Shown here piece by piece: positions 4,689 through 63,074 of a DNA stretch of 64,000 nt; the first letter of the stretch is position 1; each line of letters starts with the position of its first letter. The position numbers and the translations under genes are program-made. Source of the stretch: Vampirovibrio chlorellavorus (GTDB lineage Bacteria > Cyanobacteriota > Vampirovibrionia > Vampirovibrionales > Vampirovibrionaceae); assembly GCA_001858525.1 (NCBI GenBank), contig LAPX01000001.1, positions 70,307 through 134,306 of the forward strand, read 5' to 3'. The notes under the pieces are model-generated. The model was not told where the DNA came from, made no database searches, and saw only the letters and a list, made by a program, of their open reading frames with translations.

Positions 4689-4723
4689 GGGAATTGCTCC
4701 TTTAAGAAGTCAAAAAACTGGCT

Positions 4724-6268: not shown

Positions 6269-6366
6269 AAAAAGCCGGCCTCAAAAGTAATCTACGATTA
6301 CCGTCAGTATGAGATAAATCTGTCGATAAGTAAAATTAATGATTTTTATATTTTTTATTACAAAAA

Positions 6367-7248: not shown

Positions 7249-7268
7249 CAGGCGCTTTCAGGCAAGAT

Positions 7269-7949
7269 TCAAGGTACCTGTTTTTCAATCTGACCCAGGG
7301 TCATATCAGGGCGAACTTCTTCTTCCAGATTGGCGATGACCGCAGACAGGGGTTCTGGTTTACAAGAGAAGGGGTCAATCAGCATGGTTTCCCCGCTTTG
7401 CAAGCGGTACTTCCAGCCATACAAATGAAGAGCCCCCGCTTCCAGACGTTTGGCCACTTCCGGGTAGGTCGCCAGGTTCTGCAATTGTTGAATAACATTC
7501 CGACGAATCAACTCATTCAAACATTCATCCAAATCCTGATGAACTTCCAGCGAATCAAGAACCTCCAAATTAGGTGCCAACCACTGATAAATCGAAGACT
7601 CCTGTGGTAAATCCTTCAGACTGAACATGGCCTTCAAGGCAGCGCAGTCGGTATGACCACAAACAATAATATGGTGAACATTCAGCATGGTTAGCGCAAA
7701 CTCTATGGCAGCAGCTTCACTACTGCTTCCCCCCACCTGGTATTTGGGTATCAAATTCCCAGGGTTTTTGACAACAAAAAGCGTCCCGGGGGGCGACTGA
7801 GTAATGATGGCTGGCTCCACCCGCGAATCGCAGCAGGTAAACATCAAGGCCACCGGATGCTGCTCGTGAGACAAAGGTTGAAAAAATTCCTTGTTCGGCT
7901 CAAATACCTTATCTTTAAAGACGATGGTGCCTTCTGCCAGCCTTTTCAT
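7269..7949 (-). CDS. Beta-class carbonic anhydrase.
   Basis: CCDSRVEP (CxDxR) and HTDCAAL (HxxC) zinc-ligand motifs. 226 aa. Confidence 0.85.
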   Translation of the reverse strand: MKRLAEGTIVFKDKVFEPNKEFFQPLSHEQHPVALMFTCCDSRVEPAIITQSPPGTLFVVKNPGNLIPKYQVGGSSSEAAAIEFALTMLNVHHIIVCGHTDCAALKAMFSLKDLPQESSIYQWLAPNLEVLDSLEVHQDLDECLNELIRRNVIQQLQNLATYPEVAKRLEAGALHLYGWKYRLQSGETMLIDPFSCKPEPLSAVIANLEEEVRPDMTLGQIEKQVP

Positions 7950-15624: not shown

Positions 15625-17121
15625 TCAAACGTACATATTTTTCCAGGCCGTATCCCGCTCAGGCTTGACCTCAAACTTGGCTATCATTTGTTTATAGCTT
15701 TCAGCCATATCATCGCTGACTGAGGGATGCACCTTTTTCAGGGCCTTGCTGAAATGCGCCTCGGTGATTTTTTCCCGCTGCGCTAAGGCAAACCGGGAAG
15801 CCTGATTCACCAACTCCTTCAAGTCCGCAATAGAATACCCATGGGTCTTTGCGGCCAGACTTCCAACATCCAGCCCATCGGCTAAAACCTGGGCAGATCG
15901 CTGCTTTAAGTACATATCCAGCACCTGTTTGCGGCTGGGCTCATCGGGAGCGCCTACGTAAATTTTGGCGTTCATCCGCCCTGAGCGTACTAGGGCCGGA
16001 TCCAGCATGGCTGGCAAATTGGTGGTAGCCACCACGAACACATTCTTCTGGGCGCATTCATTCAACTGGTTCAGGAACTCGGCCACTTCTTCATTGTGAT
16101 GGGTATTGACGGACTCTCCATTCCGCTGCGGGGCCACCGCGTCTACCTCATCAATCAACAGCACCGTGGGCCGCTTGGTCTTCTTAGCCATCTCGGCGGC
16201 TGCGTCAAAAGATTCCCCGATAAACTTAGAGGTTTCATGGATATAGGGCGATCCAATGGTGGACGGGTGAATCTCCAGGAAGTTGGCCCCGGCCTCTTCC
16301 GCCACAGCCTTGGCAAAAAAGGTTTTTCCATTGCCAGGTGGGCCATACAACAGCACCCCAGACGCCGAATTTTCCAGTCCGTAATCTTTATAAAGCTGAG
16401 GGTTTTGAATCTGATCCACCAGCAACCGGTTCAAATCCGATTTCAATCCCTCCATTCCGGCGATTCGCTTAAAGCCCAGCCGCTCGGCATTGGGTCCAAA
16501 GGGACTCTGTTTGTAGGAAATAACCTTAATGGGATTGTTTTCGGTCTTGTTATTTTTAAACCGATTGTAGTCACGATCATCGTCACTGTCAGAACCACTC
16601 CAGTCAGACTCGTCCGCCCGTTTATTCCAGGGGGTCTTTAAAATGTCTTCAAATGCCTTCTTCACACTGGCCTGCACCAACAACCGCAGGCCTTCATCAT
16701 CAGAGGCAGGGGCCACATCAGGCACTCGCCGGGGCGGGGTAGAAGTCGCCGTCAGAGAATCTTTCGGTGCCACGGGCTTTTGAAACGTTGGCCCATCCTG
16801 CTTGGGCCGTTTTCGCAAATTATAACGATTGTCAGAAAGTGGCTTTTCACTCAAAGAAGCCAACGTGGACTCTTCAGTCAAAGACGATGAGGTCCACTGG
16901 CTTTGACTTTCCTCGGTGTCAGAAGGTGAGTAGCCTTCCTCTGAATCACTTTCGCTGGGTGTCGGGGTGCGTTTGCGACGCCCTGCAAAATGAACCTCAT
17001 CCCGCTGCAATAACGAGGCACTTGGCCCGATGTGTGGAGACACCTCTCGTTGACCGTTCTGTTTTCTAAGCGGTGTCACCTGAGCTTGCTTGCCGAAAAC
17101 GGCACTCGAAATCCCGACCAT
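15625..17121 (-). CDS. AAA+ ATPase of the classic CDC48/FtsH-type clade, with a ~270-aa acidic Ser/Asp/Glu-rich disordered N-terminus.
   Basis: Walker A GPPGNGKT, Walker B LLIDEVD, second region of homology ALVRSGRMNAKIYVGAPD. The N-terminus is low-complexity (DSDSEEGYSPSDTEESQSQ...). Confidence 0.8.
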   Translation of the reverse strand: MVGISSAVFGKQAQVTPLRKQNGQREVSPHIGPSASLLQRDEVHFAGRRKRTPTPSESDSEEGYSPSDTEESQSQWTSSSLTEESTLASLSEKPLSDNRYNLRKRPKQDGPTFQKPVAPKDSLTATSTPPRRVPDVAPASDDEGLRLLVQASVKKAFEDILKTPWNKRADESDWSGSDSDDDRDYNRFKNNKTENNPIKVISYKQSPFGPNAERLGFKRIAGMEGLKSDLNRLLVDQIQNPQLYKDYGLENSASGVLLYGPPGNGKTFFAKAVAEEAGANFLEIHPSTIGSPYIHETSKFIGESFDAAAEMAKKTKRPTVLLIDEVDAVAPQRNGESVNTHHNEEVAEFLNQLNECAQKNVFVVATTNLPAMLDPALVRSGRMNAKIYVGAPDEPSRKQVLDMYLKQRSAQVLADGLDVGSLAAKTHGYSIADLKELVNQASRFALAQREKITEAHFSKALKKVHPSVSDDMAESYKQMIAKFEVKPERDTAWKNMYV

Positions 17122-25062: not shown

Positions 25063-26091
25063 CTACAACACAAACAGACTTTTGACCATGTGCTTCATGT
25101 AAGCCACCCGATCAGAGCGCTCCGTCATGACGCGGTTGGCCGTCTGGGTGCCCACCTCGTGCAACAGGAATAAAAAGTTCATGGCGTGCTGGGCCCGCGC
25201 CTTGGGATGTGGGGCCTTGGCCACCGCCTGAGCCAGGGATTGAATGGCCTCTTCTTCCAGCATGACCAAATCCTTGAACCCAATGACCTTTTCTACCAGC
25301 TTGTGCTGATCTTCAAGTGATTTACCGGCAATGATGCTGTCAGCCAGTTTACGGGCAATTTGACGGTCCAGTTGCCCATCCCCCGATAAGTCCCGGACAG
25401 CAGGGATGCGCGGCATCATTTCAGATGGCAGCACTTTCAGCACATAAGCCGCCATGACCCGCTTGCCATGCCAGGTTTTCATGGCCTGATTGATCACGCA
25501 CTGACCCACGTTGTCCCGCAGAAACAGGGCCCGCATATGATTTTGCTTCATCTGCTCCGGGTTGGCGTTCTGGTTGGCTTCATCCAGGGCTTCCACAATG
25601 GCCCGATCAGCGGTCAAAATATCCCAGGGCGTTCTCACTTTGCTCATCAACTCGGCGCGCTCCGGAAAGTGCGTTCCATCAATGGCACTTTTGGCCAACC
25701 GCAAAGCCTCCCCATGGTTCAATCGGCAATAAGGATGCGGTTCCTCGTCGATAGATCCATTCGTGCGGCAAGTCGGCCCGCTAATCATCATCCCGGCCAC
25801 AGCCTTGGTTTTTTGAGAAGACCGTGACTCCCATTTTTTAGTGGGCTTATTCCGGCCAATCTGGTTGGAAATCTCCAATCCAGTGGAGCGAGCCTCTTGC
25901 GAACGCGAAAAAGTTCGCGCAATCTGCAAGGGATTTTCGTTGCGGGCTCGCAATGGCTTGATAAACCCGTTGTTCAAGGCTCCTTGCGAAGCGCTTTGCT
26001 TTTTGGACTGCCCGGAATGATGCTCGGCAGAATGCTTATACGGCACACCAACGCGTGTTAATACGGTCATATGGATGAAACCCTCCCTCAA
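25063..26091 (-). CDS. Hypothetical protein.
   Basis: 342-aa ORF. No recognised motifs. Confidence 0.45.
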   Translation of the reverse strand: MREGFIHMTVLTRVGVPYKHSAEHHSGQSKKQSASQGALNNGFIKPLRARNENPLQIARTFSRSQEARSTGLEISNQIGRNKPTKKWESRSSQKTKAVAGMMISGPTCRTNGSIDEEPHPYCRLNHGEALRLAKSAIDGTHFPERAELMSKVRTPWDILTADRAIVEALDEANQNANPEQMKQNHMRALFLRDNVGQCVINQAMKTWHGKRVMAAYVLKVLPSEMMPRIPAVRDLSGDGQLDRQIARKLADSIIAGKSLEDQHKLVEKVIGFKDLVMLEEEAIQSLAQAVAKAPHPKARAQHAMNFLFLLHEVGTQTANRVMTERSDRVAYMKHMVKSLFVL

Positions 26092-26773: not shown

Positions 26774-29700
26774 CTACAACTGGGGGCTGGCCTGATCCAC
26801 TTTTTTAACCTGGGCCATATGCCGCAAATCCAGCCAGATGCCTTTGGCCTTGAGGAAAAATTCCACACTACGGGTCAGAAACTTGCGACTGAGATCGGCA
26901 GGCATATCCTGGGCCAGGGCCTTATACAGCTGACCAATCTCAAAAGCGCAAGCCGCTATCAAGGGCTGCCAACGGGCCTGAACCACCTGAGGCCACAAGG
27001 GTTCCAGCACCTTGCCAGCCTCTTTGGGTTGCCCCTTGGCCAGCAAAGCCCGCGCACACAACAGGGATAACTGAATCACTTCATACTGGTTCTGGATATC
27101 GGGTTTTTTGGCCACATCCAACGCCTTTAAGGCAATTTCATAGGCCACATCCAGATTATCCAGCGACAATTCAAACTCAGCCAGAAACCGCCAGCCCACC
27201 AGCGCCGTGGAGGCAAATCGGTACTCCGAACTCAAGCCAATGGCCTGCTCCATTAACTGGCGGCCTTCCCGAATTTTGCCCATACGCCCGGTAATATACC
27301 CCGCATAGGCCTGAGACAGCACCCAGGTGTGATAATCCCGAGCCGCTTCCGCTTTGGACATAACCGTTAACACCAACTGGGAGGCGCTGGTCCAATCCTC
27401 CTGCTCGCAATGGTACATAATGGCCAATAAACCCCATTGGGCTAAAAACCAGTCAGAATCCGGCATTTGCTCAATGGCGTTGAGCAAACTGTCCGCTTCC
27501 CGGTTGCAGCTTTCAAAATGACCGTTGCGCAAATGCACCTGGGCCATAACCAAACGCAGAGCAATTCCCAGTCCCTCCTGGCCAGCCGATGCGGCTTGCT
27601 GCTGAGTGGATTCCAGCTCAAACAGAGCCGAGGGATCGCATTGGGCCAGTAAAATCTGAGCCTTGACCAAGCGAGCCTGCATAAAGGCTTCCATAAAATC
27701 CGGATGACTGGCCCCGTGCAACTGAACCACCGGTTCCAGAATTTTTTCCATAATCTCCCGGGCCTGATTCAGTCGACCCAGCGTGTAGAGATATTCCATA
27801 CGGTTGATTTGCAGAGAGGCCGCTTCCAGCGGATAAGCAGCAGTATCAATCAGCGACAGCGATTTTTCCAGCGTAGCCAGGGCCTGAGTGTAATCTCCGC
27901 CATTCTCGTAGGCGGATGCCAGAAAACCCAGTGGCTCCAATTGCTTAATCGCGTCGCCTTCCTGCTGGCGGGCCTCACAAACCCACTCCAGTAAACAAAC
28001 CGCAAAGTCGGCATCCTCTTCCATATTGAGGGCACCGGCACTTTCCAGCATACGCAGGGCCAGCTCCTGATGCTGGGCAGTGGCCTCTTCCGATTGGGCC
28101 ATCAGAGAAAGGGCATGAAACAAGGCCGTGTTTAAACCCGTCAGCGAGCCCACCTGACCACAGTAGATGCCGGTCAAATTCCAATAGGTAATAGCCCGGT
28201 TCAGCAAGTGCCCCTGTTGGGAGTGGTGAGCAATCAGGGCGGCTGGCACGGTGAGCCCCCGGTTGAAATCGCCTTCCAGGGCTTCACTGATCAGCTGGTG
28301 CATTTGCTCCCGAAGCTCATCCTCAATACCGGCGTAAACCACCGACCATAAAATACCGTGACGAAAACGCCCACTGTTGGCCGCATCTGGAATCAGGAAG
28401 CCGTGGTTAAACAACAGGGTCAAGGCCTCATTAAAGGCATCTTCATCCATTTGGGCCAGTGTGAACAGCAGGTTGACCGCAAATTTTTCACCCAAAATAC
28501 TGGCCAGTTGTAACAGGTACAAGCTCTGCTCGCTGAGGAAGGACAAGCGTTCGGCAATGACCTCGGGGAGTTGATCGGACAAACTTAAATCAGCGGGGTT
28601 AAAGTCCTCATTCACCAAAAATTTGCCCGTGTTGGGGTCCACAACCAAGGCTTCTTTCAGGTGCATCAGGCGCAAGGCCTCTTCCAGGTATAACGGCAAC
28701 CCTTTGGCCTGACGGGTCAACAGCCCCGTCCACTGGGAGGGCAACTGGGACAACTGTCCGCCCAAAGGCCCGTCATCCAGAAAACGCTCCATAGCGGGCA
28801 CATCCAGACGACTCACCACCCATTCATGATAAGCCGCTTTCTGGAGACATTCTGCCAGACGACCTTCGGCATAACAGTCTCGGGGATGGGTTAACACCAG
28901 ATAGACGGGCAATTGGAGCAAACCCGCCTCCAGCAACTGTGCCAGTAAATCCAGACTGGGCTGGTCCGCGTAATTTAAATCTTCAAACACCAGAATGAGC
29001 GGGCGCTTGGTGGTGATGGTCTTGAAAAAGCCCATAAAGAACGTTTCTATCCGCCCCATAAAATTCCGGGTTTCCACGCCCAAGGGTTGGGGTGGCTGCA
29101 CCAGCAGAAAATCCTGCAAAAAAGCCACCACATCCGGCGGTGGGCTACCCTCATAAACATAATCCAGAAACTTGTCCAGTGCCTGACGCACATCCGGCGA
29201 GGGGTGCCCTTCAAAAACCAGACTCAGAAGGTTCTGAAGCAATTCTACCCAATATAGCAAGGGCAAGCCGGGCGGGTGGAAGCAGCGGTAATTGGAACCG
29301 CCCATCCAGATGCCCCGCTGATTTTCCGGATCGGCTTGGGCACGGGCCATATGTACGATACTAGACTTCCCCAAGCCGTCATCCGCAGACAATGAGAGGA
29401 TTTTACCCTTTAGCCCCACAGGATTCTGGGATAGAAAGCTGGTAAAATCTGCGCTTAAGGCTTCCACCGCATCGTTGTAGGTGGTGTTTTCCGGTCTCAA
29501 AGATTTCAAGACCATCAGTGCAGGCGCGTGATAGGTTGGGAACATGGATTTTGGCGCTTTAGCCTCAGGAATAGGCTGCTCTTCCAGCTCGGGGGGTAGG
29601 GGTAAAGCCACCGCCGCCGGGGCGTTCAGATCCACTGGGCCTTCCTGCGAGGGTATTGCTGGAGGTGGGGCCACTTCCCGCTGAGGGCTTGGAGCCGGTT

Positions 29701-30616
29701 CCGTTGTAATGGCCGCAGGGGTTGGAGCAGCAATGGAGACGGTCGGTTGAGCCGCTGGGGTCATCGGTGCCGCTGAAGGCAGGGTCAGCCGATAAAATAG
29801 CAGACTGCGATTGCCAACCGACACCGGGCCCACTGGCGCGAAGGGATAGAGGGTCTGCAATCGATCATACACACGCTGACTGACCGTTAAAGTCCCAGCC
29901 TCTCCCACGGAACGTTCCAGCGTAGAGGTCAGCGGATTGCGGGCCTGGGCCAGTTCCAAATCCAGGCCCATTCTCAGTTGCAGGGTGTTGGGTCCCAATC
30001 GGTATACTTGGCTCAGCAAGCGCTTGGCCACTTCCACTGCTTTTTTCAAGGAGGCTTCCGGTGAACTTTCATGGCGAAATGAGGCGAACAGCACCCGGTT
30101 TTTACTGGCGTTGATTTGCCCGCCTACGGCGTGAATGTGCTCGGCGATGGCCGTCATCACTTCGGATTGATAAGCCTGCAAAGCTTGCGGATCGGGCGAT
30201 TCTGCCAGTGCCTGCTGCCAGTTGGCCACTTCCAGCGAAACCAGCGCATAGGCCTCCAAAGCGCTAGCGCCAGACGATTGAGGCACCGTTGGGGAGGCGG
30301 TCCTGGCCTGAGCCATGGGATTGGATTGAGCCATTGGCTTAGCCGTTTCAGTCATTGGTGTTTCCACGGCGGCCATCCCTGAAGGGGCTTCTGAGTGCTG
30401 AAACGCACTTACTGCGGCATCGACCAGCAGCTGCTTACCGCAACTGCCACAAAACTTTTGCTGCATCAAATTTTTGAAGCCACAATCGGGGCAATTGTTA
30501 TTAAGCCGATTGGCGCAATGCCCGCAGAAAATACTGTCTTCTGAATTGTAATTGCCGCACTTACCGCAAGGCTGCATCCAACACCCTCTCTGGCACCCTC
30601 TCTGGAGGACAGACAA
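26774..30616 (-). CDS. Multidomain signalling NTPase: N-terminal double zinc ribbon, degenerate class-III cyclase-like domain, Pro/Ala-rich linker, AAA_16/STAND-type ATPase and C-terminal TPR array. The probable start is the internal MQPCGKCG.
   Basis: CGKCG/CGHC/CPDCG/CGSCG ribbons. Cyclase-like block YALVSLEVANWQ...NRVLFASF...LRMGLDLE lacks the canonical Asp / GD residues. Walker A DDGLGKSS, Walker B LILVFEDLNYAD. Many TPR-like helices in the C-terminal ~600 aa. Confidence 0.75.
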   Translation of the reverse strand: MSVLQRGCQRGCWMQPCGKCGNYNSEDSIFCGHCANRLNNNCPDCGFKNLMQQKFCGSCGKQLLVDAAVSAFQHSEAPSGMAAVETPMTETAKPMAQSNPMAQARTASPTVPQSSGASALEAYALVSLEVANWQQALAESPDPQALQAYQSEVMTAIAEHIHAVGGQINASKNRVLFASFRHESSPEASLKKAVEVAKRLLSQVYRLGPNTLQLRMGLDLELAQARNPLTSTLERSVGEAGTLTVSQRVYDRLQTLYPFAPVGPVSVGNRSLLFYRLTLPSAAPMTPAAQPTVSIAAPTPAAITTEPAPSPQREVAPPPAIPSQEGPVDLNAPAAVALPLPPELEEQPIPEAKAPKSMFPTYHAPALMVLKSLRPENTTYNDAVEALSADFTSFLSQNPVGLKGKILSLSADDGLGKSSIVHMARAQADPENQRGIWMGGSNYRCFHPPGLPLLYWVELLQNLLSLVFEGHPSPDVRQALDKFLDYVYEGSPPPDVVAFLQDFLLVQPPQPLGVETRNFMGRIETFFMGFFKTITTKRPLILVFEDLNYADQPSLDLLAQLLEAGLLQLPVYLVLTHPRDCYAEGRLAECLQKAAYHEWVVSRLDVPAMERFLDDGPLGGQLSQLPSQWTGLLTRQAKGLPLYLEEALRLMHLKEALVVDPNTGKFLVNEDFNPADLSLSDQLPEVIAERLSFLSEQSLYLLQLASILGEKFAVNLLFTLAQMDEDAFNEALTLLFNHGFLIPDAANSGRFRHGILWSVVYAGIEDELREQMHQLISEALEGDFNRGLTVPAALIAHHSQQGHLLNRAITYWNLTGIYCGQVGSLTGLNTALFHALSLMAQSEEATAQHQELALRMLESAGALNMEEDADFAVCLLEWVCEARQQEGDAIKQLEPLGFLASAYENGGDYTQALATLEKSLSLIDTAAYPLEAASLQINRMEYLYTLGRLNQAREIMEKILEPVVQLHGASHPDFMEAFMQARLVKAQILLAQCDPSALFELESTQQQAASAGQEGLGIALRLVMAQVHLRNGHFESCNREADSLLNAIEQMPDSDWFLAQWGLLAIMYHCEQEDWTSASQLVLTVMSKAEAARDYHTWVLSQAYAGYITGRMGKIREGRQLMEQAIGLSSEYRFASTALVGWRFLAEFELSLDNLDVAYEIALKALDVAKKPDIQNQYEVIQLSLLCARALLAKGQPKEAGKVLEPLWPQVVQARWQPLIAACAFEIGQLYKALAQDMPADLSRKFLTRSVEFFLKAKGIWLDLRHMAQVKKVDQASPQL

Positions 30617-46754: not shown

Positions 46755-47738
46755 ATGACTTCACCGTTTTTAACAACACAATCCGTTGGCACCTCCAGTT
46801 ACGCAGATCCTGCTGCTGGTAGCCCAGTAACTGCGCCTTCGAGCGGAAGCGCCAGCGATCCGCTTTTGGCTAAATATTTCGGCGGCGGGCAAACGCCTCA
46901 GTCGGGTCCTGCCTATGGCATGGGTAGCGGCTATGGTGGCTATGGTGGATACCCTACCTCGCCCTGGGGATATCCACCAGGACCAGGATATGGCCCACAG
47001 CAACCGCCCTTAAACGATGCCACTGCTTTGGCCCGTATTCAAAGCATTTCCGGACAGCTGGACGCCCAAGTGGTAGGACAGGCCGATGGGCTGATTGACG
47101 TCAACGATTTGCGGAGCGCTTTGGACGATAAGAGCGGCAAATACTCCAAAACCGATAAAGAGGCCATTCAGTACATGCTGGATAACCAGAGCGGACTTCG
47201 GGGCCGAGTGGATCATTTTGATGGCAAGGACGACGGCATGTTCAGTGTGGACACCCTCAACAAGCTGGTGGCCAATCCTTCATCCCAACCGGTCTTGCCC
47301 TTGGATCAGAAGTTGACCAACACCCAGGCGCTCTCTTCCTTGCAAACATTCATGAAAGATCATAAATGGGGCAGTCTCGATCGAAATAGTCTCAATCACA
47401 TTGCCCAATACGGTGATACCGAAGAGCAAAAAGCCGCGGCCAAAAAATTGCTCAACAACGAAGAACTATTTAAAGCGGCCGACACCGGTCGGGACAACAA
47501 CGGCGACTACGACAACAAGATCAGCTACGATGATATTGGCAGCCTTATTTTACGGAGCAACGTGGATAAAATTGGGGCCAGCACCACGAGCACGACCCCA
47601 CCTCCGGGCAGCGCGCCATACACGCCTATGTACTCCGGTAACTATTACGCGGATGCCTATTACAACAATATGTACGCCAGCACATTGGGTCCGGCAACCA
47701 GTTTGTACCAAAACGCACCCGGTTTGCCTCCCCGGTAA
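46755..47738 (+). CDS. Hypothetical low-complexity Gly/Tyr/Pro-rich protein.
   Basis: GYGGYGGYPTSPWGYPPGPGYGPQQPP. Asp/Asn-rich middle region (DxNDLRSALDDKSG, DNNGDYDNKISYDDIG). Confidence 0.5.
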   Translation: MTSPFLTTQSVGTSSYADPAAGSPVTAPSSGSASDPLLAKYFGGGQTPQSGPAYGMGSGYGGYGGYPTSPWGYPPGPGYGPQQPPLNDATALARIQSISGQLDAQVVGQADGLIDVNDLRSALDDKSGKYSKTDKEAIQYMLDNQSGLRGRVDHFDGKDDGMFSVDTLNKLVANPSSQPVLPLDQKLTNTQALSSLQTFMKDHKWGSLDRNSLNHIAQYGDTEEQKAAAKKLLNNEELFKAADTGRDNNGDYDNKISYDDIGSLILRSNVDKIGASTTSTTPPPGSAPYTPMYSGNYYADAYYNNMYASTLGPATSLYQNAPGLPPR

Positions 47739-49686: not shown

Positions 49687-51654
49687 ATGCCCATCATCTC
49701 CACCTATCCAACCACCCACCCGCAAAAAAGTGGCGCCCCAACCTTGGCCCGTCAACCGATCAAGCCCCCCCACCAAGCGGTTCAGTTCGCGGGAGGGAAC
49801 CCACTGGACACCATCGATCCCAATCACCTGCAGCACATTAAAAATTTACCGGCCCACTTATCTCTTCAACAGATTGCCATGAGCATCGCCCCCAAAACCA
49901 GTGATCCCGCTGTTATGCAATATTTGGCCCAACGCTTTCAACAAAAATTCAACAACGTGGATCACCCAGTCAATCCCGTGCACCAGCAAACCTTGCTGCA
50001 TATTGCGGTCTCCGCAGGGCGTCCCAAACTGGTAGAAGCCTTGCTGAACGAAGGCGCCAACCCCCTCACCGAAAATAAAAAAGGGGAAGACGCGCTCGAT
50101 TGGGCTGAAAACAAAATAAGCCGAACCGCTTCTCCCGCTGACCGCCAAGCCATCCAGCAAATGTTGTTTAAACAGGTAAAAGCCTTGGCCAAACAACAAC
50201 CCATTGTGAAAGACGAAACACCCACCCTCGCCGCCGCTCACAGCAGTCATGCCTCCGCACCCGCTGGGCCATCTTCCTGGTTGAACAACTGGGGACTGGG
50301 TTCCCTCTTCGCACAGCAAAAGGAAGCATCCCAAAAACCAGCCGCCGATGCCTTGCCCAATGAGAAGCAGGAAGCGGAACCCCAGGCATTGGCAGCGCCA
50401 TCCGTTGAGCCTGCTGCTGAAGAATCGGCTCAAAAAGAGTTGGCCCAGCTCCAACAAACCCAAAGCTTGTTGCAAAGCCAGCTGGCCGAAGCCAAGCGGA
50501 ACCTAAAACAGCTGGGGGAGACGACCCAAAAGGCTGTGCACGATAAGAAGCAACTGAAACAAGAAAAAAAGCAGCTGGAAGCAGAACTCCAACAACTACA
50601 AGCAGAGACTGCCAGCTTGGAAAACAAGCTAAGCCATCAACAAACAGGCGCCGCGCAGGCAATAAAACGGCTCTCCAAAAAAGAAGACAGCCTTCGCAAG
50701 CGGCTTGAGCAAAAAACAGAAGATCTGCAAAAAGCTGAACAGAAGCTGGAAGCAATCCTGTTGACCCAAGACACCCAATTAAAAGCCCTGCAAGCCAGTC
50801 ACGCCCAACAAATCGCCAACCTAAAGCAAGAACTGCAGAATGCCCAAAAAATAGCCTTCCGCCCTCCCACTGCGGAATCCCCAACCTCGTCTTCATCCGG
50901 CTCAGCGCCTGCCCAAAGCACCCAAGACCGAGCAAAAGCCGGAAAGCTATACGCCAAACTCAACGGGCTGCAAACGGACTTAAGCAAAGCCAATGCCCGA
51001 ATTCACCACCTGACTGAAGAATTGATGCTGGTTCAAAAACAGTATCGGGACTGGATTGCCCGCTTGCTGCAAGAAAAGGATTCACTGAACTTTCAGTTGG
51101 CCCAAACCCAGTGGCAGCGGGATGAAAGCGCCATCATTCTGCCCAAAGTGCATCAGGTCAACGAGCAGTTGGTGGCCAACATGAACCATCAGGGCCGGGA
51201 ACTGCAAACCCTCCGCCAGACCATTAGCCAGCAAACGGCGGCACTGTCAGCTCAGCAAGCCCAGTTGGCAGAACAAGCCCAGCAAATCCAGGAACAAGCG
51301 GAACTCATTGAAAAACAAAAAGCCCAGAAACAGACACTGTCCAAAACCGCAGAACATGCCATGAAACTCAGCACTTCCCATCGCCGGGATTTACAGAGGC
51401 AAGTCCAGGAGACTTACCAAATCATACTGGATTTGCTGGCACAAAAACGGGAAGCTGGATTCAACGGAAATGACTTTGTTGAAATTGAATCCGACTTGAA
51501 ACAAATCATCGCCTTTCAGCAACAGCAATTAAAAAGCAGCTCTCTGTTATCCACGGCACTGGCGGCACCCAGCACATCTGAAGCCGATGAGTCATCCGAG
51601 GCCGACACGCCCCCACTCAGACGGATACCACTGCGTTCCAAGTCCTTTCGCTAG
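49687..51654 (+). CDS. Protein with N-terminal ankyrin-like repeat(s) followed by a ~450-aa coiled coil.
   Basis: QQTLLHIAVSAGRPKLVEALLNEGANPLTENKKGEDALDWA ANK unit. Long heptad-rich Q/E/K/L region. Confidence 0.6.
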   Translation: MPIISTYPTTHPQKSGAPTLARQPIKPPHQAVQFAGGNPLDTIDPNHLQHIKNLPAHLSLQQIAMSIAPKTSDPAVMQYLAQRFQQKFNNVDHPVNPVHQQTLLHIAVSAGRPKLVEALLNEGANPLTENKKGEDALDWAENKISRTASPADRQAIQQMLFKQVKALAKQQPIVKDETPTLAAAHSSHASAPAGPSSWLNNWGLGSLFAQQKEASQKPAADALPNEKQEAEPQALAAPSVEPAAEESAQKELAQLQQTQSLLQSQLAEAKRNLKQLGETTQKAVHDKKQLKQEKKQLEAELQQLQAETASLENKLSHQQTGAAQAIKRLSKKEDSLRKRLEQKTEDLQKAEQKLEAILLTQDTQLKALQASHAQQIANLKQELQNAQKIAFRPPTAESPTSSSSGSAPAQSTQDRAKAGKLYAKLNGLQTDLSKANARIHHLTEELMLVQKQYRDWIARLLQEKDSLNFQLAQTQWQRDESAIILPKVHQVNEQLVANMNHQGRELQTLRQTISQQTAALSAQQAQLAEQAQQIQEQAELIEKQKAQKQTLSKTAEHAMKLSTSHRRDLQRQVQETYQIILDLLAQKREAGFNGNDFVEIESDLKQIIAFQQQQLKSSSLLSTALAAPSTSEADESSEADTPPLRRIPLRSKSFR

Positions 51655-56464: not shown

Positions 56465-58372
56465 ATGGATAAAGGATTTTCCCCCAAGGCGTTTCTGCCT
56501 GAATTAACCCTGTTTGTCATTATGGCCGTGTTGCTGTTTATCAATTTGGGCGTATTTGATATTGACCCTTACAGCGAATTTTTCCACCTGGAATCCGCCA
56601 AGGAAACCTTATCTCTGGGGCGCTTCTGGGTTCCCAGTCTAAGTGGACACGATTATCTGGTGCGTGCCCCCCTGTGGACCTGGTTGATGATGATCGGTTT
56701 TAAACTGGGCGGCATTGGCTTATCTGTAGCCAGATTACCAGCAGCCATGCTCTCCCTGATAGCCTTGGGCCTGACCTACCTGATGACCATGGAGCTGACT
56801 AAAAGCCGGTTTTCAGCCCTGTTCACCACCAGTTTGCTCGCCGTAAGCTGGGGCTTCTTTTACCTGGGATCTCTGGCCACTGCTGATATCCTGACCCTTA
56901 ATCTGTATCTGGGTTTTTTATGGACATTTTTCAAATGGAAAGATCAGGCCTCTCGTCGCAATGGTGCCATTGAGGAAATGAACCGGACCATGCTGATCAT
57001 GGGCAGTCTGCTCGGGGTGCTGGTACTTTGCAGTGGCAGTCTCAGCGCGCTCATGCTGGTAGTCATCACGTCCCTTTACCTGGTTTTAAGCCAAAACACC
57101 CTGTTGTTTAACCGCATGAATTTCAAATCCCTGCTGTTACCCATGGTGCTGATTCCCTTACCCTGGCTGTTATGGACCTCCATGGCATCTGGCCAAAGTG
57201 GATTTATCTTGAATTACCTGCTGGTTTACCCCGCCCAGAAAATACTGGGTTTGGGTCTTTGGACCAGCCTACGGGGGGATTGGCTGTTTTACGCCAAGCG
57301 ACTGCTGATTGAGTTGCTGCCATTCTCGCTACTGGTGCCAGCGGCCTTACTGGACCCGGAGGTCATAACCGTGAATACTCGACACCAGTCGGCCCCGCCA
57401 ACCGCCTGGCTGCTAAGCTGGTTCTTGATTGGCTTTACGGTTTATTCGCTCTCCGCTTTTCAGGAACCCACCCTGATTTTACCCTTTATTCCGCCCCTGG
57501 CCATCATTGCGGGTGGCTATCTGGCTCAGGTAGTGGAGGCCTCCAATAACAAAACGCACGCTTACTACGAAAAAGTCCTGATTACCTACATCATGGCCCT
57601 TTTAGTGGCCGCGGTCCTTTTGACCATCGTTATTTTCCAGGTGGTGCCCAGCAACTACGTGGCCGGTTTCTGGAAGTTACCGGGGCTGGCGGTGCTGGAA
57701 TCCCTGACGTTGAAAGATAAAGTATTTCCCCTGCCAGAAGCCTTTCCCCTGTGGAAGTTCTGGCTGATACCGGGGCCGTTCATTCTGCTGATAGGGGCCT
57801 TTTCCCTCTTCTTTTTGCAATTTTCCAGAAAGCTGAGCCTGACCCCATTGGCCCTGTGCAGTTCTCTGCTGATTTTTATGCTGTTTGTCAAAACGGTCTA
57901 TTTGCCCATCATGCACCGTCCGGTCAATGAGTATCTGGCCCAGCAGCTGAACCACAGTATCAAAGCGGATGACAGGGTTTTACTATACTCCCTGCACCCA
58001 GCGGTCAAGCGTGTTTTGTTTTACATTGCCCCGCAAAACCGACCGGCCGTTTACGTTGTGCATAGCAGCCAGCAAGTTGCCCAGGCCCTGGAGAATGGCA
58101 ATGGGGTCATCTACGGGGTCATTCGGGAAAAGAGCTACTTCAACGATCTGGACTATCAGTACAGAAACCTGTTTCGGGTGAACCAGTACAACTGGCAATG
58201 GGATTTGGACAGCCTGAATGAAATGGGCAAATTGCTGACAGGGCGCCTTCCGGAATTTGATAAAATGCGCTCGGAAATTATGGTGCTGCAAAGCTTGCCC
58301 ACAGATACGCTTCGGGTGATTAAACAAGAAGAACAGAACCGGGCGGAACAGACCCGGCAAGATCGAAACTAA
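56465..58372 (+). CDS. Glycosyltransferase family 39 (PMT/ArnT-like) polytopic membrane protein.
   Basis: Multi-transmembrane protein with a GT-C N-terminal loop and a periplasmic C-terminal domain. 635 aa. Confidence 0.75.
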   Translation: MDKGFSPKAFLPELTLFVIMAVLLFINLGVFDIDPYSEFFHLESAKETLSLGRFWVPSLSGHDYLVRAPLWTWLMMIGFKLGGIGLSVARLPAAMLSLIALGLTYLMTMELTKSRFSALFTTSLLAVSWGFFYLGSLATADILTLNLYLGFLWTFFKWKDQASRRNGAIEEMNRTMLIMGSLLGVLVLCSGSLSALMLVVITSLYLVLSQNTLLFNRMNFKSLLLPMVLIPLPWLLWTSMASGQSGFILNYLLVYPAQKILGLGLWTSLRGDWLFYAKRLLIELLPFSLLVPAALLDPEVITVNTRHQSAPPTAWLLSWFLIGFTVYSLSAFQEPTLILPFIPPLAIIAGGYLAQVVEASNNKTHAYYEKVLITYIMALLVAAVLLTIVIFQVVPSNYVAGFWKLPGLAVLESLTLKDKVFPLPEAFPLWKFWLIPGPFILLIGAFSLFFLQFSRKLSLTPLALCSSLLIFMLFVKTVYLPIMHRPVNEYLAQQLNHSIKADDRVLLYSLHPAVKRVLFYIAPQNRPAVYVVHSSQQVAQALENGNGVIYGVIREKSYFNDLDYQYRNLFRVNQYNWQWDLDSLNEMGKLLTGRLPEFDKMRSEIMVLQSLPTDTLRVIKQEEQNRAEQTRQDRN

Positions 58373-58504: not shown

Positions 58505-59611
58505 GTGGGTTTCGTTGTTCTTTTAAGTGGGAGGGTATTTGCGATGCTGTCAGGGATTCACTCACCCATCAATGGCTGGGGAAACACCGGGAGTGTTAAA
58601 AGCGCTGCAAAATCACCCGACTCCCCGCAGGCAATCAGTCGTTCCGATCAGTTTCAACGTTCAGGCAAAACGCTCAACTCAGAAGCCAGCAGTTCTCTCG
58701 CCTCTACACACAGCGGCAAAACCTTGTTTCAGCGAGTATTTCAGGCCCCCTGGACAAAACGATCCGGGGTATCCAGGAGTCAACCACGCACCCGCATTAT
58801 TGCCGGGGCCCAACACGACCGTAAAGAGCCCCGCAATCCCATTTCTTTTGAAGCACTGGATAGCATGCTCAAAGAACTGGACAATGATGTGGATCCCCAC
58901 ATCGGTTCCATCATGAAGGACGGCTATGCCAGCGGCCTCAAACATCTGCTGAAAGTGGGCAACCAGATTGTGGCCGAGATGAACAAGGTGACAGAACAGG
59001 GGCACAATAACCCGGAACTGGTTATCTACTTCGATCCACCGGTGGTTCATGGCACCCTGAAAGACCCCATGAGTGAGCGCCGTTATTCCTATGAAATCGA
59101 GGCTGAAAAAGAAGTCGTCTGTGAAGTGTTGACCCCGCGACGACTGCCCACAAAATTTAATGCCATGAACCACTGGTCCAACATCGCCCGGGACAAGCAA
59201 GGCCTGAGTGAGCTGGAGTATCTGGAATTTGATAAGACCGATCTCGGGTATATGCAAGAAACCACCCGAAGGCACACCAAAGTCCCCAGACAAGAGCGCT
59301 TCAACCTGCACAACAAGGAAGAACTGGCCGACTACGCCTTTCAACTGTTTAATATGCTTTATAACCTGCATTTAGCCCGAGAAGAAATGGCCCAGCAGTT
59401 TAAAAAAAATCCGGCCCAATATAAAGTAGGCATTGCCTCTCGCAGTCCGGGGGGTGAAACGGAAATCCACGATCTCAGCCGCCTGTTTCCGGGGTGTCAT
59501 CTTCAGGCCGACAATACGCAGCCACAAGGCCCCTTTTCTGAATTACCCCTGTCACTCCCGGCCCAGCGGGCTTTGCTGGAACGACTTTTCAGAGAGGACA
59601 ATAGCCAATAG
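58505..59611 (+). CDS. Member A of a tandem three-gene paralog family of unknown function. The start is probably the internal MLSGIHSPING.
   Basis: Shares with B and C an S/P/Q-rich disordered N-terminus, a (D/E)EL(A/S)DY..LF.ML block and the C-terminal IHDLSRLFPGC motif. Confidence 0.5.
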   Translation: MGFVVLLSGRVFAMLSGIHSPINGWGNTGSVKSAAKSPDSPQAISRSDQFQRSGKTLNSEASSSLASTHSGKTLFQRVFQAPWTKRSGVSRSQPRTRIIAGAQHDRKEPRNPISFEALDSMLKELDNDVDPHIGSIMKDGYASGLKHLLKVGNQIVAEMNKVTEQGHNNPELVIYFDPPVVHGTLKDPMSERRYSYEIEAEKEVVCEVLTPRRLPTKFNAMNHWSNIARDKQGLSELEYLEFDKTDLGYMQETTRRHTKVPRQERFNLHNKEELADYAFQLFNMLYNLHLAREEMAQQFKKNPAQYKVGIASRSPGGETEIHDLSRLFPGCHLQADNTQPQGPFSELPLSLPAQRALLERLFREDNSQ

Positions 59612-59672
59612 GCAATACTTTTTTCAGCTTGAATTGTTGCCCTAAAAAGGCACATCTGGGGAGTTCTCGATC

Positions 59673-60701
59673 ATGATTTTAAGCAGCGGCTTTTCACCGA
59701 TTCAAAGCAATCCACCCAACCAGACTGAAATCAGTTCTGGCAAAAAAAAGACGGCAAAACACCCACAAAATGCACAATATGGCGTCAGCGCGCAGCTTGG
59801 CGCTCGGCCACGCCCGAACCGAAAACCACCCCATACTGGCGCCTCAAACATTCATAACCCTTTGGAGCAAACTAAATTACGACAACTCCTGGGACACATT
59901 CGTCCAGAACCCAGCAGCCTTTACCCCATTGACGCTCAAAATATCAATGTGGCTGCCAAGCAATTGATCCAATTGGGGAACGCGCTTTTAAACCTGCAAG
60001 AAGAGCACTCCAAATGGCCTGTCAGCAAGGACCGTTATATTTATACGCACAGCCAGCTGGTCATCTATCAGGAAGAAACCATGAGAGAGACCGACGCAGG
60101 GATCTACTGGACGCCCTCAAAAATTATGCGCTACATCGACACCCCCAGTAACACCCGACGCTGGCTCCAACGTCCCTGGCGCTACCTAGCAGACCTCTCC
60201 CAACATTTAGCCAGCCAAGAAACTGATATAAGCCTCAAAATCCCCCTGCACGTGGCCCAGATGCTTTCACAGTTTTTATCTTGCAGCTTCAATCCAGATT
60301 TATTTGACTTTGAGCGGGCCTGGAAAAAAGGCCTGACCATCCTGCACAATCACATTCAAGGGGTGGGGCTGATAGATTGGAGTCGAGCCGAGCGAAACGC
60401 ACTGGCCAAAACAGCCTCTCGGCAGGGGTTTAACATTCGGCACGACGATGAACTGAGTGATTATGTGGAAGACTTGTTCCACATGCTGGAACAAGTTGCC
60501 AGTGGCCTGCACCAAGCAAAAGCAGACTATCCCAAAGCACCTATGAAATTGGGGCTTGTCAGCAAATTGCCGGACGGACGGCAGCTCTTTTATGATTTAA
60601 GCGACCTATTTCCCGGTGGCAGTTTAACGGCCATCCGCACAGTCACCGCAACCGATCGAAAAGAGCTTGAAAACTTGCTCAATCAGACGGATTCGGTTTA
60701 A
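59673..60701 (+). CDS. Member B of the tandem paralog family.
   Basis: N-terminus MILSSGFSPIQS. DELSDYVEDLFHMLE. C-terminal FYDLSDLFPGG. Confidence 0.5.
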   Translation: MILSSGFSPIQSNPPNQTEISSGKKKTAKHPQNAQYGVSAQLGARPRPNRKPPHTGASNIHNPLEQTKLRQLLGHIRPEPSSLYPIDAQNINVAAKQLIQLGNALLNLQEEHSKWPVSKDRYIYTHSQLVIYQEETMRETDAGIYWTPSKIMRYIDTPSNTRRWLQRPWRYLADLSQHLASQETDISLKIPLHVAQMLSQFLSCSFNPDLFDFERAWKKGLTILHNHIQGVGLIDWSRAERNALAKTASRQGFNIRHDDELSDYVEDLFHMLEQVASGLHQAKADYPKAPMKLGLVSKLPDGRQLFYDLSDLFPGGSLTAIRTVTATDRKELENLLNQTDSV

Positions 60702-60822
60702 GAGCGTGTTCCAGAGAGAAAGGTTCGATTTGAGTTTAAGGCTTGGCTTATTTTGTTTTTAACTTATAATGTCTTTTTGAAAGTGAGGTTTACATATAAC
60801 CAATCGGTAGGGGAGAACGCTT

Positions 60823-61959
60823 GTGATCGTACAAGGGGTATTTTCGCATTTAAAACCATTAGCGGGGCCACACCAACGCACCGGGGAAAGCCCGACTGAG
60901 CCCACATTACAAAAACATCAACCGCTGCCAGCCAACGGAGATCGATTCCAGCGCCAGGCAAAGGGTCTACCATCAGGGCTTCCAGCCAAGCCGTTTATCG
61001 GACAATCTTTATGGCCCCGCAAACCAGAATCGCCCAAACGCCAGGTCATTGCCGGAAAAAGCGCAAAAGCCAGTATGGAGCCTGAAAACCACAGGCCCTC
61101 CCCGCCTGCGCCTCCCATCAACCCCATCGCCTTTGAACGGGCCAACGCACTGCTAAAAGCCCTCAGAACAGAGCACGCTCCGACGGCTCAAGCCATTCTG
61201 AACAACGGTCAACAGGAAGGACTGAAGCAACTGCTGATGATTAGCAACCGACTGGTGAGCGACGTCAACGGCCTGCGCAAACAGGGACGTCACAACATTC
61301 GCTTTGTCTTTTATGTGCATGATCCGTCCCTGAAGGCCTTTCGCGATCCTGAATTTGATCCGCAGAATCCGGAACTCTCCGATGAGTTGTCGCTACGGTA
61401 TTACTTTAGCAAACCGCAAATTCTGGCCGATCAGGATCGCTTGCACCCACCCCTGAGGTATGGCCGCAAGGCTCCATCATTGCCCAGCGTTTTACCGGAC
61501 AACCAGGCCAAAGGGCTGGGCCATCTGGAATTTTCAATGGAAGAACTGCAGGTTCTGAAAGCCACCGCCCAAAGCGCGGGTTATCAGGACAGCGAGGCCC
61601 ATTTTAATGAGTACCTCAAACAACTCTTTGATCAGGTGGAAAATCTATACGCCCAATGGCTCACCGTGTCGCAACAGGATCAAGGCGTTCAACCCTTACG
61701 GCTGGGCCTCTATTCCGATAATTTACCCACCATGCGCTATATTATTCGAGGCAAACGCAAAGAGCCACCGATTCGGGATTTTAAGGGCTGGCAACGGCTG
61801 GATCAGCCCAAGCGAGGCTGGCAAATCCATGACGTCACCCAGCTCTTTCCGGCCTGCGATATAAGCGGCTATCAAACCGGCCCAGCGCAAGCCCTGCTGA
61901 ATCTGGAAAGTAAAATTCCATTTTGGTACGAACGAAAGAAACCCAAAGGGAACGCCTAG
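60823..61959 (+). CDS. Member C of the tandem paralog family.
   Basis: N-terminus MIVQGVFSHLKP. C-terminal IHDVTQLFPAC. Central blocks alignable with A. Confidence 0.5.
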   Translation: MIVQGVFSHLKPLAGPHQRTGESPTEPTLQKHQPLPANGDRFQRQAKGLPSGLPAKPFIGQSLWPRKPESPKRQVIAGKSAKASMEPENHRPSPPAPPINPIAFERANALLKALRTEHAPTAQAILNNGQQEGLKQLLMISNRLVSDVNGLRKQGRHNIRFVFYVHDPSLKAFRDPEFDPQNPELSDELSLRYYFSKPQILADQDRLHPPLRYGRKAPSLPSVLPDNQAKGLGHLEFSMEELQVLKATAQSAGYQDSEAHFNEYLKQLFDQVENLYAQWLTVSQQDQGVQPLRLGLYSDNLPTMRYIIRGKRKEPPIRDFKGWQRLDQPKRGWQIHDVTQLFPACDISGYQTGPAQALLNLESKIPFWYERKKPKGNA

Positions 61960-63074
61960 GGTTTGGGTTTGCAATTCTTTTTCAAATATTCCCAAAGTTC
62001 GGCGGTTTCAGCATGATTGGCCATCTTAACCGAATTGTAGAAGAACTTGGCTTGCCCATAGTCATCCGCCGCGCAGTAGGCAGTACTCAGGTTGTATTTG
62101 GCCTGAATGATATTGGCAGGATCCATGAAGCCAACCTTTAGAGAAAGGGCCTTGCGGGCGTTTATAAACACCTCTTCCCACTGATTTTTGAGCAGGTAGG
62201 CCGAAGAAAGGCCCACATAGGCATCCGCCAGATTCGGGTTTTTACGAATGGCCTGCTGATACTCCAATATGGCCTGTGCCAGTTGATTGGCATGACCGTA
62301 GTAACTGCCCCGGTTGTAATGCGACAGGGCTTCCTGATGTTTGCCAGACACCACCACAATGGAAGCCGGTAAATAGGGTCGGTAGCCCACCGGATAAAAG
62401 CCAGGCTCCATTTTGTTTCGGGCAGAACGAGTATCCGCCAAATCTTGCGGGAAGTGTACCAAAGGCTTTTCAACCGATTGGCGGTTGACCGGGGTGGCGG
62501 TAGCTTGCAAAGCCACTGCGGACTCAATAAGCACTCGGCCCTTGGGCGCCGCTGATAATTTAAGGCTGTTTTTGGGCGGAGACGGTTGCGCCTTACCGGC
62601 GAGAGCAGGCCTTAACGTAGTCGATTTGGCTGAAGCTGAACCCATTGCCTTCTTGGTGGCAGCCGGTATTACCACGGTGGGCTGCCAGTCGGTAACTTTA
62701 CGTTGCCGACGGCTTTGCGGTTCAGCAGTACGAGGCTTTTTAACGGGTGTCGACTGGGCAGGCTTGGCCTGAGAGGAGACCGTTGGCGCTGTTCGACTTT
62801 TTTGTTCCGGCTGCCAGGACACCGGCACCAGATCAGAGTAAACCGACGGCGGAGGGGTATCATGCACCCGGATATCTGGCTTTAAGTCCAGCATGGGAGA
62901 AGTTTTAGGCACATCCATACGAGTCCGGGCGGTCAAACGGGGCGTCTTGCGATACAAGGCCTCCGCCTGCACCCGAATCAGGCTAAAACACAGCGCGTAA
63001 ACCAATAAACTCAGCGCCCAAAAAGCAATCGAATTCTCAACCCGCTTCAATCTCACCGGAAAACTCCCTGCCAT
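61956..63074 (-). CDS. Membrane-anchored TPR-repeat protein with a Pro/Ser/Thr/Lys-rich linker.
   Basis: N-terminal transmembrane helix. TPR helices in the C-terminal third (AYVGLSSAYLLKNQWEE..., AKYNLSTAYCAADDYGQA...). Confidence 0.6.
   Translation of the reverse strand: MAGSFPVRLKRVENSIAFWALSLLVYALCFSLIRVQAEALYRKTPRLTARTRMDVPKTSPMLDLKPDIRVHDTPPPSVYSDLVPVSWQPEQKSRTAPTVSSQAKPAQSTPVKKPRTAEPQSRRQRKVTDWQPTVVIPAATKKAMGSASAKSTTLRPALAGKAQPSPPKNSLKLSAAPKGRVLIESAVALQATATPVNRQSVEKPLVHFPQDLADTRSARNKMEPGFYPVGYRPYLPASIVVVSGKHQEALSHYNRGSYYGHANQLAQAILEYQQAIRKNPNLADAYVGLSSAYLLKNQWEEVFINARKALSLKVGFMDPANIIQAKYNLSTAYCAADDYGQAKFFYNSVKMANHAETAELWEYLKKNCKPKP

Follow-up and report, generated by a model that had tools for sequence, protein, structure and literature searches.

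A 64-kb stretch of Vampirovibrio chlorellavorus DNA (assembly GCA_001858525.1, contig LAPX01000001.1; the whole stretch is referred to as the window) carries three consecutive genes on the + strand, here called A, B and C. On the evidence of sequence comparison, their products are anciently diverged, vertically inherited paralogs of an orphan family and form a conserved, lineage-specific module. The family appears to be undescribed, and its sole detectable kinship, distant and unproven, is to tandem ribbon-helix-helix (RHH) proteins. The functional interpretation tentatively preferred, which is regarded as plausible and somewhat short of probable, is that the three products function within the cell as soluble, non-enzymatic binding proteins, each composed of a single-chain RHH-like core and a basic tail, A and C cooperating and B being accessory; the RHH-like fold, the intracellular location, the cooperation of A with C and the ligand are the parts of it that we infer.

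The relationship of the three proteins, described in an initial annotation of the DNA as that of tandem, highly diverged paralogs, was borne out by significant BLASTP matches between A and C (1e-13, 24% identity over ~350 aa), A and B (3e-11) and B and C (1e-5), with pairwise identities of 23-28%. A family hidden Markov model (HMM) recovered A, B and C only (E 1e-81 to 1e-110) among the open reading frames (ORFs) of the window, the next best having an E value of 1.9. The same annotation had delimited a globular region of ~250 aa with two motif blocks, (D/E)EL(A/S)DYxxxLFxML and, near the C-terminus, (I/L)(H/Y)D(L/V)(S/T)xLFPG(C/G). Both blocks are retained when 3, 17 or 35 sequences are aligned with MAFFT; C has the variant HFNEYLKQLFDQV. 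Further aligned blocks are NPIxF...LLKxL, LKxLLxxGN, (L/F)V(I/F)Y, LxFSxxE...TAxxxG(F/Y), KLG(I/L) and D(L/V)(S/T)xLFP.

Searches for further members revealed a tiny family with dispersed paralogs. Word-indexed searches returned seven relatives of A and six of C, the window's own proteins counted in, and an exhaustive profile search of 1.84 billion cluster representatives yielded 23 proteins, all of 277-376 aa. The A subfamily is present in three Vampirovibrio species among 185,579 GTDB species genomes. Every organism-named match of A, of C or of the family is Vampirovibrio, including the most distant subfamily, represented by P0031 (WP_373532004.1) from the same genome as an A+C pair, and the family appears confined to Vampirovibrio as far as named sources reach. 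In total, eight subfamilies and at least four paralogs per genome were distinguished. The earlier statement that no known domain could be recognized also stands: scans of A, B and C against Pfam, NCBIfam, PHROGs and PADLOC gave no match (best PHROG E 0.14), with no toxin or immunity domain in Pfam or PADLOC; Pfam analysis of ten distant members gave only a sub-threshold match to the uncharacterized family DUF6683 (E 0.006, under the cut-off); and searches of PDB sequences with the full-family and unit-2 profiles gave at best a globin helix (E 0.18). A literature search found no paper naming the family.

The gene order in V. chlorellavorus, with arrowheads marking the strand, is SurA<, Xer>, PMT_2>, A>, B>, C>, <TPR, <GuaA, <deacetylase, <GT4/GT2, Wza>. 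Two other Vampirovibrio genomes carry A followed directly by C, without B, and the distant genome GCA_040960395.1 keeps A-B-C-<TPR-<GuaA with ArsC/DnaB upstream in place of PMT_2/Xer/SurA, at identities of 38% (A), 26% (B) and 44% (C). A and C occur together at six of six loci examined and B is missing at two; judging by these loci, B has been lost from this position at least twice. In a neighbour-joining tree, multi-genome clades were obtained for A (bootstrap 85%), B (94%) and C (99%), with A and C as sisters (90%). These clades, together with the conserved order, indicate that the triplication predates the species concerned and that the order is fixed, in agreement with the old tandem duplication and divergence that had been suggested.

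The ratio of non-synonymous to synonymous substitution rates (omega) was determined against the closest relative, at unsaturated synonymous divergence (dS 0.38-0.55). It amounts to 0.14-0.24 gene-wide and to 0.11 and 0.17 in the globular domains of A and B, the tails giving 0.22 and 0.63; the neighbouring genes gave values similar to those of the globular domains, 0.10-0.11 (PMT_2) and 0.16-0.17 (Xer). Purifying selection acts on the globular domains. Compared with housekeeping genes, the trio still evolves fast: GuaA retains 86-88% identity where the TPR neighbour retains 42% and the trio the values given above. The purifying omega, combined with a rate above that of GuaA, contradicts an antigenic-variation or arms-race array and fits moderately constrained, lineage-specific proteins.

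Three ORFs do lie where they had been annotated, but A is a protein of 355 rather than 368 residues. Its likely start is the ATG that opens MLSGIHSPI..., and the public protein is also 355 aa long; GGGAG is found 8-12 nt 5' of the starts used for all three genes (for A at 58529). The spacers measure 61 bp (A-B) and 121 bp (B-C), and C may be transcribed from its own promoter, a sigma-70-like site being located in the latter (Table 1). The stop of C overlaps that of the convergent TPR gene by 4 bp. In the V. chlorellavorus annotations the C ortholog (L001/L002, 12277-13410) is a 298-aa product called from an internal start; this call is probably truncated, because the open frame extends upstream and encodes the conserved N-terminus (M)IVQGAFWHSKP.... 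No DNA-level element common to the three 5' regions was found, and an Rfam scan of the window revealed a single tRNA only.

The proposed architecture of the proteins would consist, successively, of the tail, a first beta-alpha-alpha unit, a beta-meander/helical insert, a second unit and a hairpin whose D(L/V)(S/T)xLFPGC motif closes the domain. AlphaFold models were built from 17 sequences for A and from 35 for B. The model of A is mediocre, with a predicted local distance difference test score (pLDDT) of 62.8 and helix or coil in place of the unit-2 strand, while that of B is good (pLDDT 79.2, predicted template modelling score 0.72, globular part 80-95). Both units of model B coincide with the two best-conserved sequence blocks; its other elements are a hairpin at residues 291-308 and a helix at 326-341. 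Across the family only one Gly is invariant, only an Asn and a Tyr are nearly so, and no potentially catalytic residue is conserved. The globular domains of A and B are acidic (isoelectric points, pI, of 5.7 and 6.4), and that of C is basic (pI 9.1) owing to a 31-aa basic insertion.

Whether the two units make up an RHH-like core was examined by profile comparison with a reference alignment of Arc, Mnt and CopG that had been checked against the PDB. The hhalign alignment of unit 2 places the strand, helix A and the Gly turn in register, with a score of 18.7 against 8.2 +/- 1.6 (maximum 12.7) in 30 column shuffles. The Gly turn between helices A and B is represented by TAxxxG[FY] in unit 2 of most members, the A clade having an insertion there; in unit 1 the loop is longer and an equivalent Gly is missing. 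The top matches of model A, which is independent of model B, include VirC2 and AvtR. The two units of the model resemble a single-chain, pseudo-dimeric RHH core, a likeness for which the chances are considered roughly even and in which the pairing of the strands into a ribbon is presumed. Unit 1 compared with unit 2 by hhalign scored no higher than shuffles, so that an internal duplication was not detected.

Several results weigh against the RHH-like, intracellular interpretation. The hhalign probability of unit 2 is only 27%, and unit 1 gave no sequence signal against Arc/Mnt/CopG. HMMER found no RHH family (Pfam, unit-2 segments of 26 members) and no PDB chain, and Foldseek found nothing for model A in the PDB (best E 0.4, TM ~0.1). 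In the hhalign register, the DNA-contacting Arg13 of Arc corresponds mostly to Asp or Glu (LEF / LIDW), and the acidic domains of A and B count against a canonical reading of the DNA major groove; because of both, the core, if RHH-like, is not a canonical operator-reading ribbon. Furthermore, the uncharged conserved decapeptide, the long disordered tail, the rate relative to GuaA and the multiplicity of paralogs in a predator would suit exported substrates as well. If the preferred interpretation is correct, the three proteins would be binding modules within the bacterial cell, contacting nucleic acid or a protein partner through the ribbon face and the basic tail; an obligate pair, possibly a hetero-oligomer, would be formed by A and C, and B would be an accessory third member.

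The N-terminal tails had been described as disordered and ~100 aa long. Disorder is predicted in both models (pLDDT <50 over residues 1-83 and 89-96 of A and 1-43 of B) and the length applies to A and C (~96-98 aa), but the tail of B has only ~45-60 aa. In the window proteins the tails have a pI of 10.7-11.6 and a net charge of +7 to +9 and are rich in Ser, Pro, Gln and Gly; a charge of at least +7 in the first 80 residues is reached by only 2 of the 40 other window ORFs. Ser and Thr together make up 11-27% of the tails. In 33 of 34 full-tail members the tail spans 56-103 aa and carries +5 to +14, with near-zero charge in the first 12 residues. Charge and length are kept while the sequences diverge, which indicates that the tail composition is itself conserved. 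The shared N-terminal motif reported earlier is real within each orthogroup, where the first 10 residues form a conservation island (identity 0.57-0.63, against 0.25-0.43 in the next 20-30 residues), and reduces to a loose pattern between paralogs. A second island, D-x-[FLV]-x-[RL]-[SKQ], occurs as a DxFQR-type motif in A, C and most of the distant subfamilies and not in B, and the A clade has an additional, nearly invariant island, IIAGAQHDRKEPRNPI. Since G|F-S-P-I-Q is not followed by a hydrophobic helix and its Gly varies among B orthologs, a prepilin-like interpretation of this sequence was discarded.

Table 1. Features of the A-B-C locus and of related loci (window coordinates unless a locus is named)
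Feature	Coordinates	Strand	Remarks
GT-C glycosyltransferase (PMT_2, ArnT-like)	56465..58372	+	upstream; adjacency not conserved
Gene A	58544..59611	+	355 aa from ATG 58544; ORF listing begins at GTG 58505 (368 aa)
A disordered basic tail	58544..58831	+	residues 1-96, pI 11.6, net +9
A decapeptide MLSGIHSPIN	58544-58573	+	conserved, in tail
A short motif DQFQRS	58646-58663	+	in tail
A-specific nearly invariant peptide IIAGAQHDRKEPRNPISFE	58796..58852	+	0.96 identity block; leads into beta-alpha-alpha unit 1
A conserved block 1 (NPI strand, LLKxL helix, LKxLLxxGN helix)	58835..59002	+	proposed RHH-like unit 1
A conserved block 2 (LEF strand, helix A, ELADYAFQLFNML helix B)	59213..59398	+	proposed RHH-like unit 2; holds first annotated motif
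A beta-hairpin KVGI...IHDLSRLFPGC	59420..59497	+	holds second annotated motif
Gene B	59673..60701	+	342 aa; most divergent paralog
B short basic disordered tail	59673..59843	+	N-terminal MILSSGFSPIQ
B beta-alpha-alpha unit 1	59844..60011	+	strand 58-61, helices 66-75 and 91-113 (model)
B four-stranded beta-meander	60054..60134	+	strands within 128-154; between the two units (model)
B-clade-specific three-helix insert	60171..60356	+	helices within 167-228 (alignment and model)
B beta-alpha-alpha unit 2	60369..60527	+	strand 233-236, helices 238-250 and 258-285; in register with Arc/Mnt/CopG
B beta-hairpin KLGL...YDLSDLFPGG	60543..60620	+	model and alignment
Promoter-like site TTGGCT-16-TATAAT	60743..60770	+	B-C spacer; sigma-70-like, 10/12 consensus matches only
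Gene C	60823..61959	+	378 aa, GTG start; sister of A
C Pro-rich basic disordered tail	60823..61116	+	residues 1-98; N-terminal (M)IVQGVFSHLKP
C short motif DRFQRQ	60940-60957	+	in tail
C conserved block 1 (unit 1)	61120..61287	+	alignment
C conserved block 2 (unit 2)	61516..61677	+	alignment
C-clade-specific, conserved, very basic 31-aa hairpin insertion LPTMRYIIRGKRKEPPIRDFKGWQRLDQPKR (core RGKRKEPPIRDFKGWQRLDQPKR)	61723..61815	+	alignment
C second hairpin strand and IHDVTQLFPAC motif	61816..61857	+	alignment
Membrane-anchored TPR protein	61956..63074	-	convergent; only neighbour kept at all trio loci
D paralog P0031	L024 9001-10023	same as upstream motor genes	downstream of motA-motB-fliL-fliM-fliN
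D paralog P0035	L022 8001-9038	same as upstream motor genes	downstream of motA-motB-fliL-fliM-fliN
~1000-aa ArabFuran-catal/Laminin_G_3 protein	L009 5192-8101	+	adjoins P0027
~1000-aa ArabFuran-catal/Laminin_G_3 protein	L022 4689-7703	-	adjoins P0035

The strongest alternative, unlikely and still to be taken seriously, is that the proteins are exported predation factors: the uncharged Ser/hydrophobic decapeptide and the acid-poor tail would constitute a non-Sec signal, read by the flagellar type III apparatus (the only type III secretion system known in the organism) or alternatively by a type IV secretion system (T4SS), with the Chlorella prey as the target or site of action of the globular domain. 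Such a role would be consistent with the N-terminal conservation island of each orthogroup and the disorder of the tails, and with the scarcity of charge at the N-terminus: in nearly all members, whichever of the eight subfamilies they belong to, the first 12 positions contain no more than one charged residue, which is true of 42% of the other window ORFs. It would also suit the confinement of the family to a predator lineage with at least four paralogs per genome and a rate far above that of GuaA (38-44% identity against 86%), the location of a fourth paralog (P0031/P0035) just downstream of motA-motB-fliL-fliM-fliN in two genomes, and the ankyrin-repeat proteins encoded nearby. The V. chlorellavorus genome paper describes a flagellum and type IV pili, reports no injectisome, and proposes a T4SS for the delivery of hydrolases to prey (PMC4451040).

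Against export, no recognized signal of any kind was found. A, B and C have no Sec or Tat signal and no transmembrane helix by hydropathy analysis (no dedicated signal-peptide predictor was applied): the N-termini are polar and no hydrophobic segment exists, the maximal 19-residue Kyte-Doolittle value being 0.45 (A), 1.02 (B) and 0.49 (C). The conserved extreme N-terminus had been called reminiscent of a non-classical secretion signal, and a check for secretion-system genes had been proposed; in the window and at the trio loci none were found, nor are there chaperone genes beside the trio. The C-termini are not consistently positive as in VirB/D4 substrates, those of A and B being acidic or neutral and that of C basic, and the idea of a classical C-terminal T4SS signal was abandoned, since the paralogs do not agree in this respect. 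The FlgM profile (PF04316) gave no match at E <=1 for A, B and C or at E <=10 for ten distant members, no flagellar Pfam signal was obtained, and the flagellar adjacency concerns the D paralog only. Stable synteny and low omega also speak against export. Finally, other window ORFs, including an AAA+ ATPase, carry similar N-termini, so that an uncharged, Ser-rich N-terminus alone is not diagnostic of secretion.

A rather less likely alternative views the proteins as intracellular or membrane-peripheral scaffolds, i.e. adaptors of a lineage-specific structure such as an attachment pad, the flagellar base or the envelope assembly, which would bind proteins instead of nucleic acids and resemble RHH proteins in topology only. 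The acidic ribbon positions and the acidic domains of A and B are in its favour, as are the D subfamily and the surroundings of the family. D proteins possess a 25-aa hydrophobic hairpin of transmembrane grade in the central insert (...GCIAMTVLFSMLLSPQIVIGGPLLL..., 19-residue Kyte-Doolittle value 1.8-2.0) and are encoded beside flagellar motor genes; one D-bearing genome (that of P0031) belongs to a Vampirovibrio sp. with A and C. The trio always lies beside a membrane-anchored TPR protein evolving at the same rate (identities of 69/41/42%, where GuaA has 86-88%), an exopolysaccharide cluster is near, and P0026 is located near Wzy, GT9 and GT1 genes. However, these neighbourhood links are weak, A, B and C have no membrane segment, and any partner is presumed. 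The TPR protein is anchored in the membrane at its N-terminus and contains a Ser/Pro/Lys-rich linker of its own; its TPR domain is probably periplasmic, because a positively charged N-terminus precedes the single transmembrane segment.

The dispersed single-copy members P0026, P0027, P0030 and P0034 come from separate contigs of one metagenome, JGI 3300056809. P0027 and P0035, which belong to different subfamilies, each adjoin a ~1000-aa ArabFuran-catal-like protein; the two large proteins are 40% identical and have one N-terminal hydrophobic anchor each, and no homolog is encoded in the window. The links of D and of the dispersed paralogs are purely positional, and may keep both a flagellar or membrane role and export by the flagellar type III apparatus in play.

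A further idea, in which the trio would be a new class of translocated RHH-like effectors, is judged very improbable. The decapeptide would serve for export by the flagellar type III apparatus or the T4SS, and the basic, acid-poor tail, rich in hydroxyl residues and Pro, for targeting in Chlorella in the manner of a transit peptide or nuclear signal. The tandem-RHH domain would then have nucleic acid of the organelles or the nucleus as its ligand, or would accompany transferred DNA as proteins of the VirC2/TraY type do in conjugative systems.

The position of the array downstream of a GT39 glycosyltransferase had raised the possibility that the Ser/Thr-rich tails are O-glycosylated by this adjacent PMT-like enzyme. 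In four Vampirovibrio genomes a GT-C gene does precede the trio on the same strand, at a distance of 171 bp, and the Ser and Thr content of the tails would be suitable. However, the enzyme is not clearly GT39: its PMT_2 score is borderline (26.6 against a cut-off of 26.1 bits), and among NCBIfam profiles it comes closest to ArnT (E 1.4e-14), with 53.6 bits where the cut-off is 567. No PMT_2 gene was found near the distant trio locus L014, which has ArsC/DnaB instead, or near any dispersed singleton paralog, and the enzyme is probably not part of the module. GT-C enzymes act on the periplasmic side, to which A, B and C, lacking an export signal, would not be expected to have access. This leaves the glycosylation idea unsupported; being largely refuted by synteny, it is effectively rejected. 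The same applies to a diversifying array of antigenically varying, toxin or polymorphic effector proteins with rapid birth and death and positive selection, which had been put forward as typical of such genes: low paralog identity and the variable presence of B are in keeping with it, but it is already contradicted by paralogs that split before speciation, conserved core synteny between housekeeping genes, omega <0.25 overall and <0.65 even in the tails, a window in which no copy-number expansion, extra copies, cassettes or repeats were found, the lack of toxin or immunity domains, and the lack of secretion-system genes in the window and at the trio loci.

Several other proteins of the window have comparable N-termini. 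An AAA+ ATPase of 498 aa (15625-17121, -) begins with MVGISSAVFG... and has a ~240-aa Ser/Pro-rich, probably disordered N-terminal region, which shows that N-termini of this kind also occur, in this genome, outside the candidate secreted proteins. Hypothetical proteins without a Pfam match and with trio-like N-termini are encoded at 10006-11103 (-, MSTLSSSFTPLTN...) and 46755-47738 (+, MTSPFLTTQSV...), and a third hypothetical protein without a Pfam match (25063-26091, -) has a basic tail followed by ...NENPLQ.... The 655-aa product of 49687-51654 (+), with one weak ankyrin match, has an uncharged, Ser/Thr/Pro-rich N-terminus (MPIISTYPTTHPQKSG...) and is a conserved neighbour (643-675 aa) in Vampirovibrio loci L001-L004. 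All five look-alikes fail the whole-family and per-module HMMs and were rejected as relatives.

Ankyrin repeats are a eukaryote-like domain and in bacteria often mark host-targeted proteins. Eleven of them (Pfam Ank, E 2e-83) are found in a 583-aa protein (104-1855, +), which deserves attention given the algal-predator lifestyle. At 1977-7949 (-), DabA (E 4e-207), a DabB-like Proton_antipo_M subunit, a LysR regulator and a beta-carbonic anhydrase are encoded in a row, and constitute by their predicted functions an inorganic-carbon uptake and hydration module in a non-photosynthetic predator. A 1280-aa protein (26774-30616, -) combines an N-terminal double zinc ribbon, an AAA_16 NTPase and TPR repeats in a STAND-like signalling architecture.

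Vampirovibrio, a non-photosynthetic predator and a pest of industrial Chlorella cultures, is to our knowledge the one predator of the cyanobacterial phylum that has been brought into culture. What is known of its predation machinery comes solely from genome inference (PMC4451040). The family described here is lineage-restricted, multi-paralog, under purifying selection and without a counterpart elsewhere, and is therefore a reasonable candidate for lineage-specific biology, be it predation, attachment, motility or regulation. If the tandem-RHH interpretation is true, a small DNA-binding fold would have been extended to a large, insert-bearing single chain with long basic tails. At present it is a well-delimited orphan family with testable hypotheses and no demonstrated new mechanism.

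Among known systems, bacterial O-mannosylation (a PMT/GT39 enzyme with secreted Ser/Thr-rich substrates) shares with the A-B-C locus a GT-C enzyme encoded upstream and disordered segments rich in Ser, Thr and Pro. In contrast to those systems, the enzyme here is ArnT/PMT_2-like and borderline, its gene is not consistently linked to the family, and an export signal is missing from the candidate substrates.

Type III export signals, such as those of flagellar FlgM and the Pseudomonas syringae Hop effectors, are disordered and Ser-rich N-termini without early acidic residues. A, B and C likewise have a disordered, Ser-rich N-terminus with no acidic residues in the first ~12 positions and an aliphatic residue at positions 2-4. 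The family's tail motif D-x-[FLV]-x-[LR]-[SKQ] resembles the short FlgM motif DxVxLS. The differences are that A, B and C do not match the FlgM Pfam family, that their N-terminal composition is also found on the cytoplasmic-type AAA+ ATPase of the window, and that no injectisome is known in Vampirovibrio (PMC4451040).

Tandem RHH proteins resemble A, B and C in the proposed domain construction. F-plasmid TraY (9f0x_E), Ti-plasmid VirC2 (2rh3), DndE (7x4e) and the engineered single-chain Arc (1u9p) possess two beta-alpha-alpha units per chain, as A, B and C appear to do, and the Arc/Mnt/CopG succession of strand, helix A, Gly turn and helix B is kept in register in unit 2. Many RHH proteins have a flexible basic N-terminal arm before the first strand, and such an arm is present in A, B and C. 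There are also differences, which relate to similarity, genomic context, size and construction. HMMER-level similarity is missing, the DNA-contact positions of the ribbon are largely acidic, and no relaxase, oriT or dnd association is seen at the loci. A, B and C have three times the size of these proteins, helix B of their units is much longer, and the two units are separated by a ~115-aa beta-meander/helical insert and followed by a beta-hairpin and a C-terminal helix. The N-terminal tail, ~10-20 aa long in tandem RHH proteins, extends over 45-100 aa in A, B and C.

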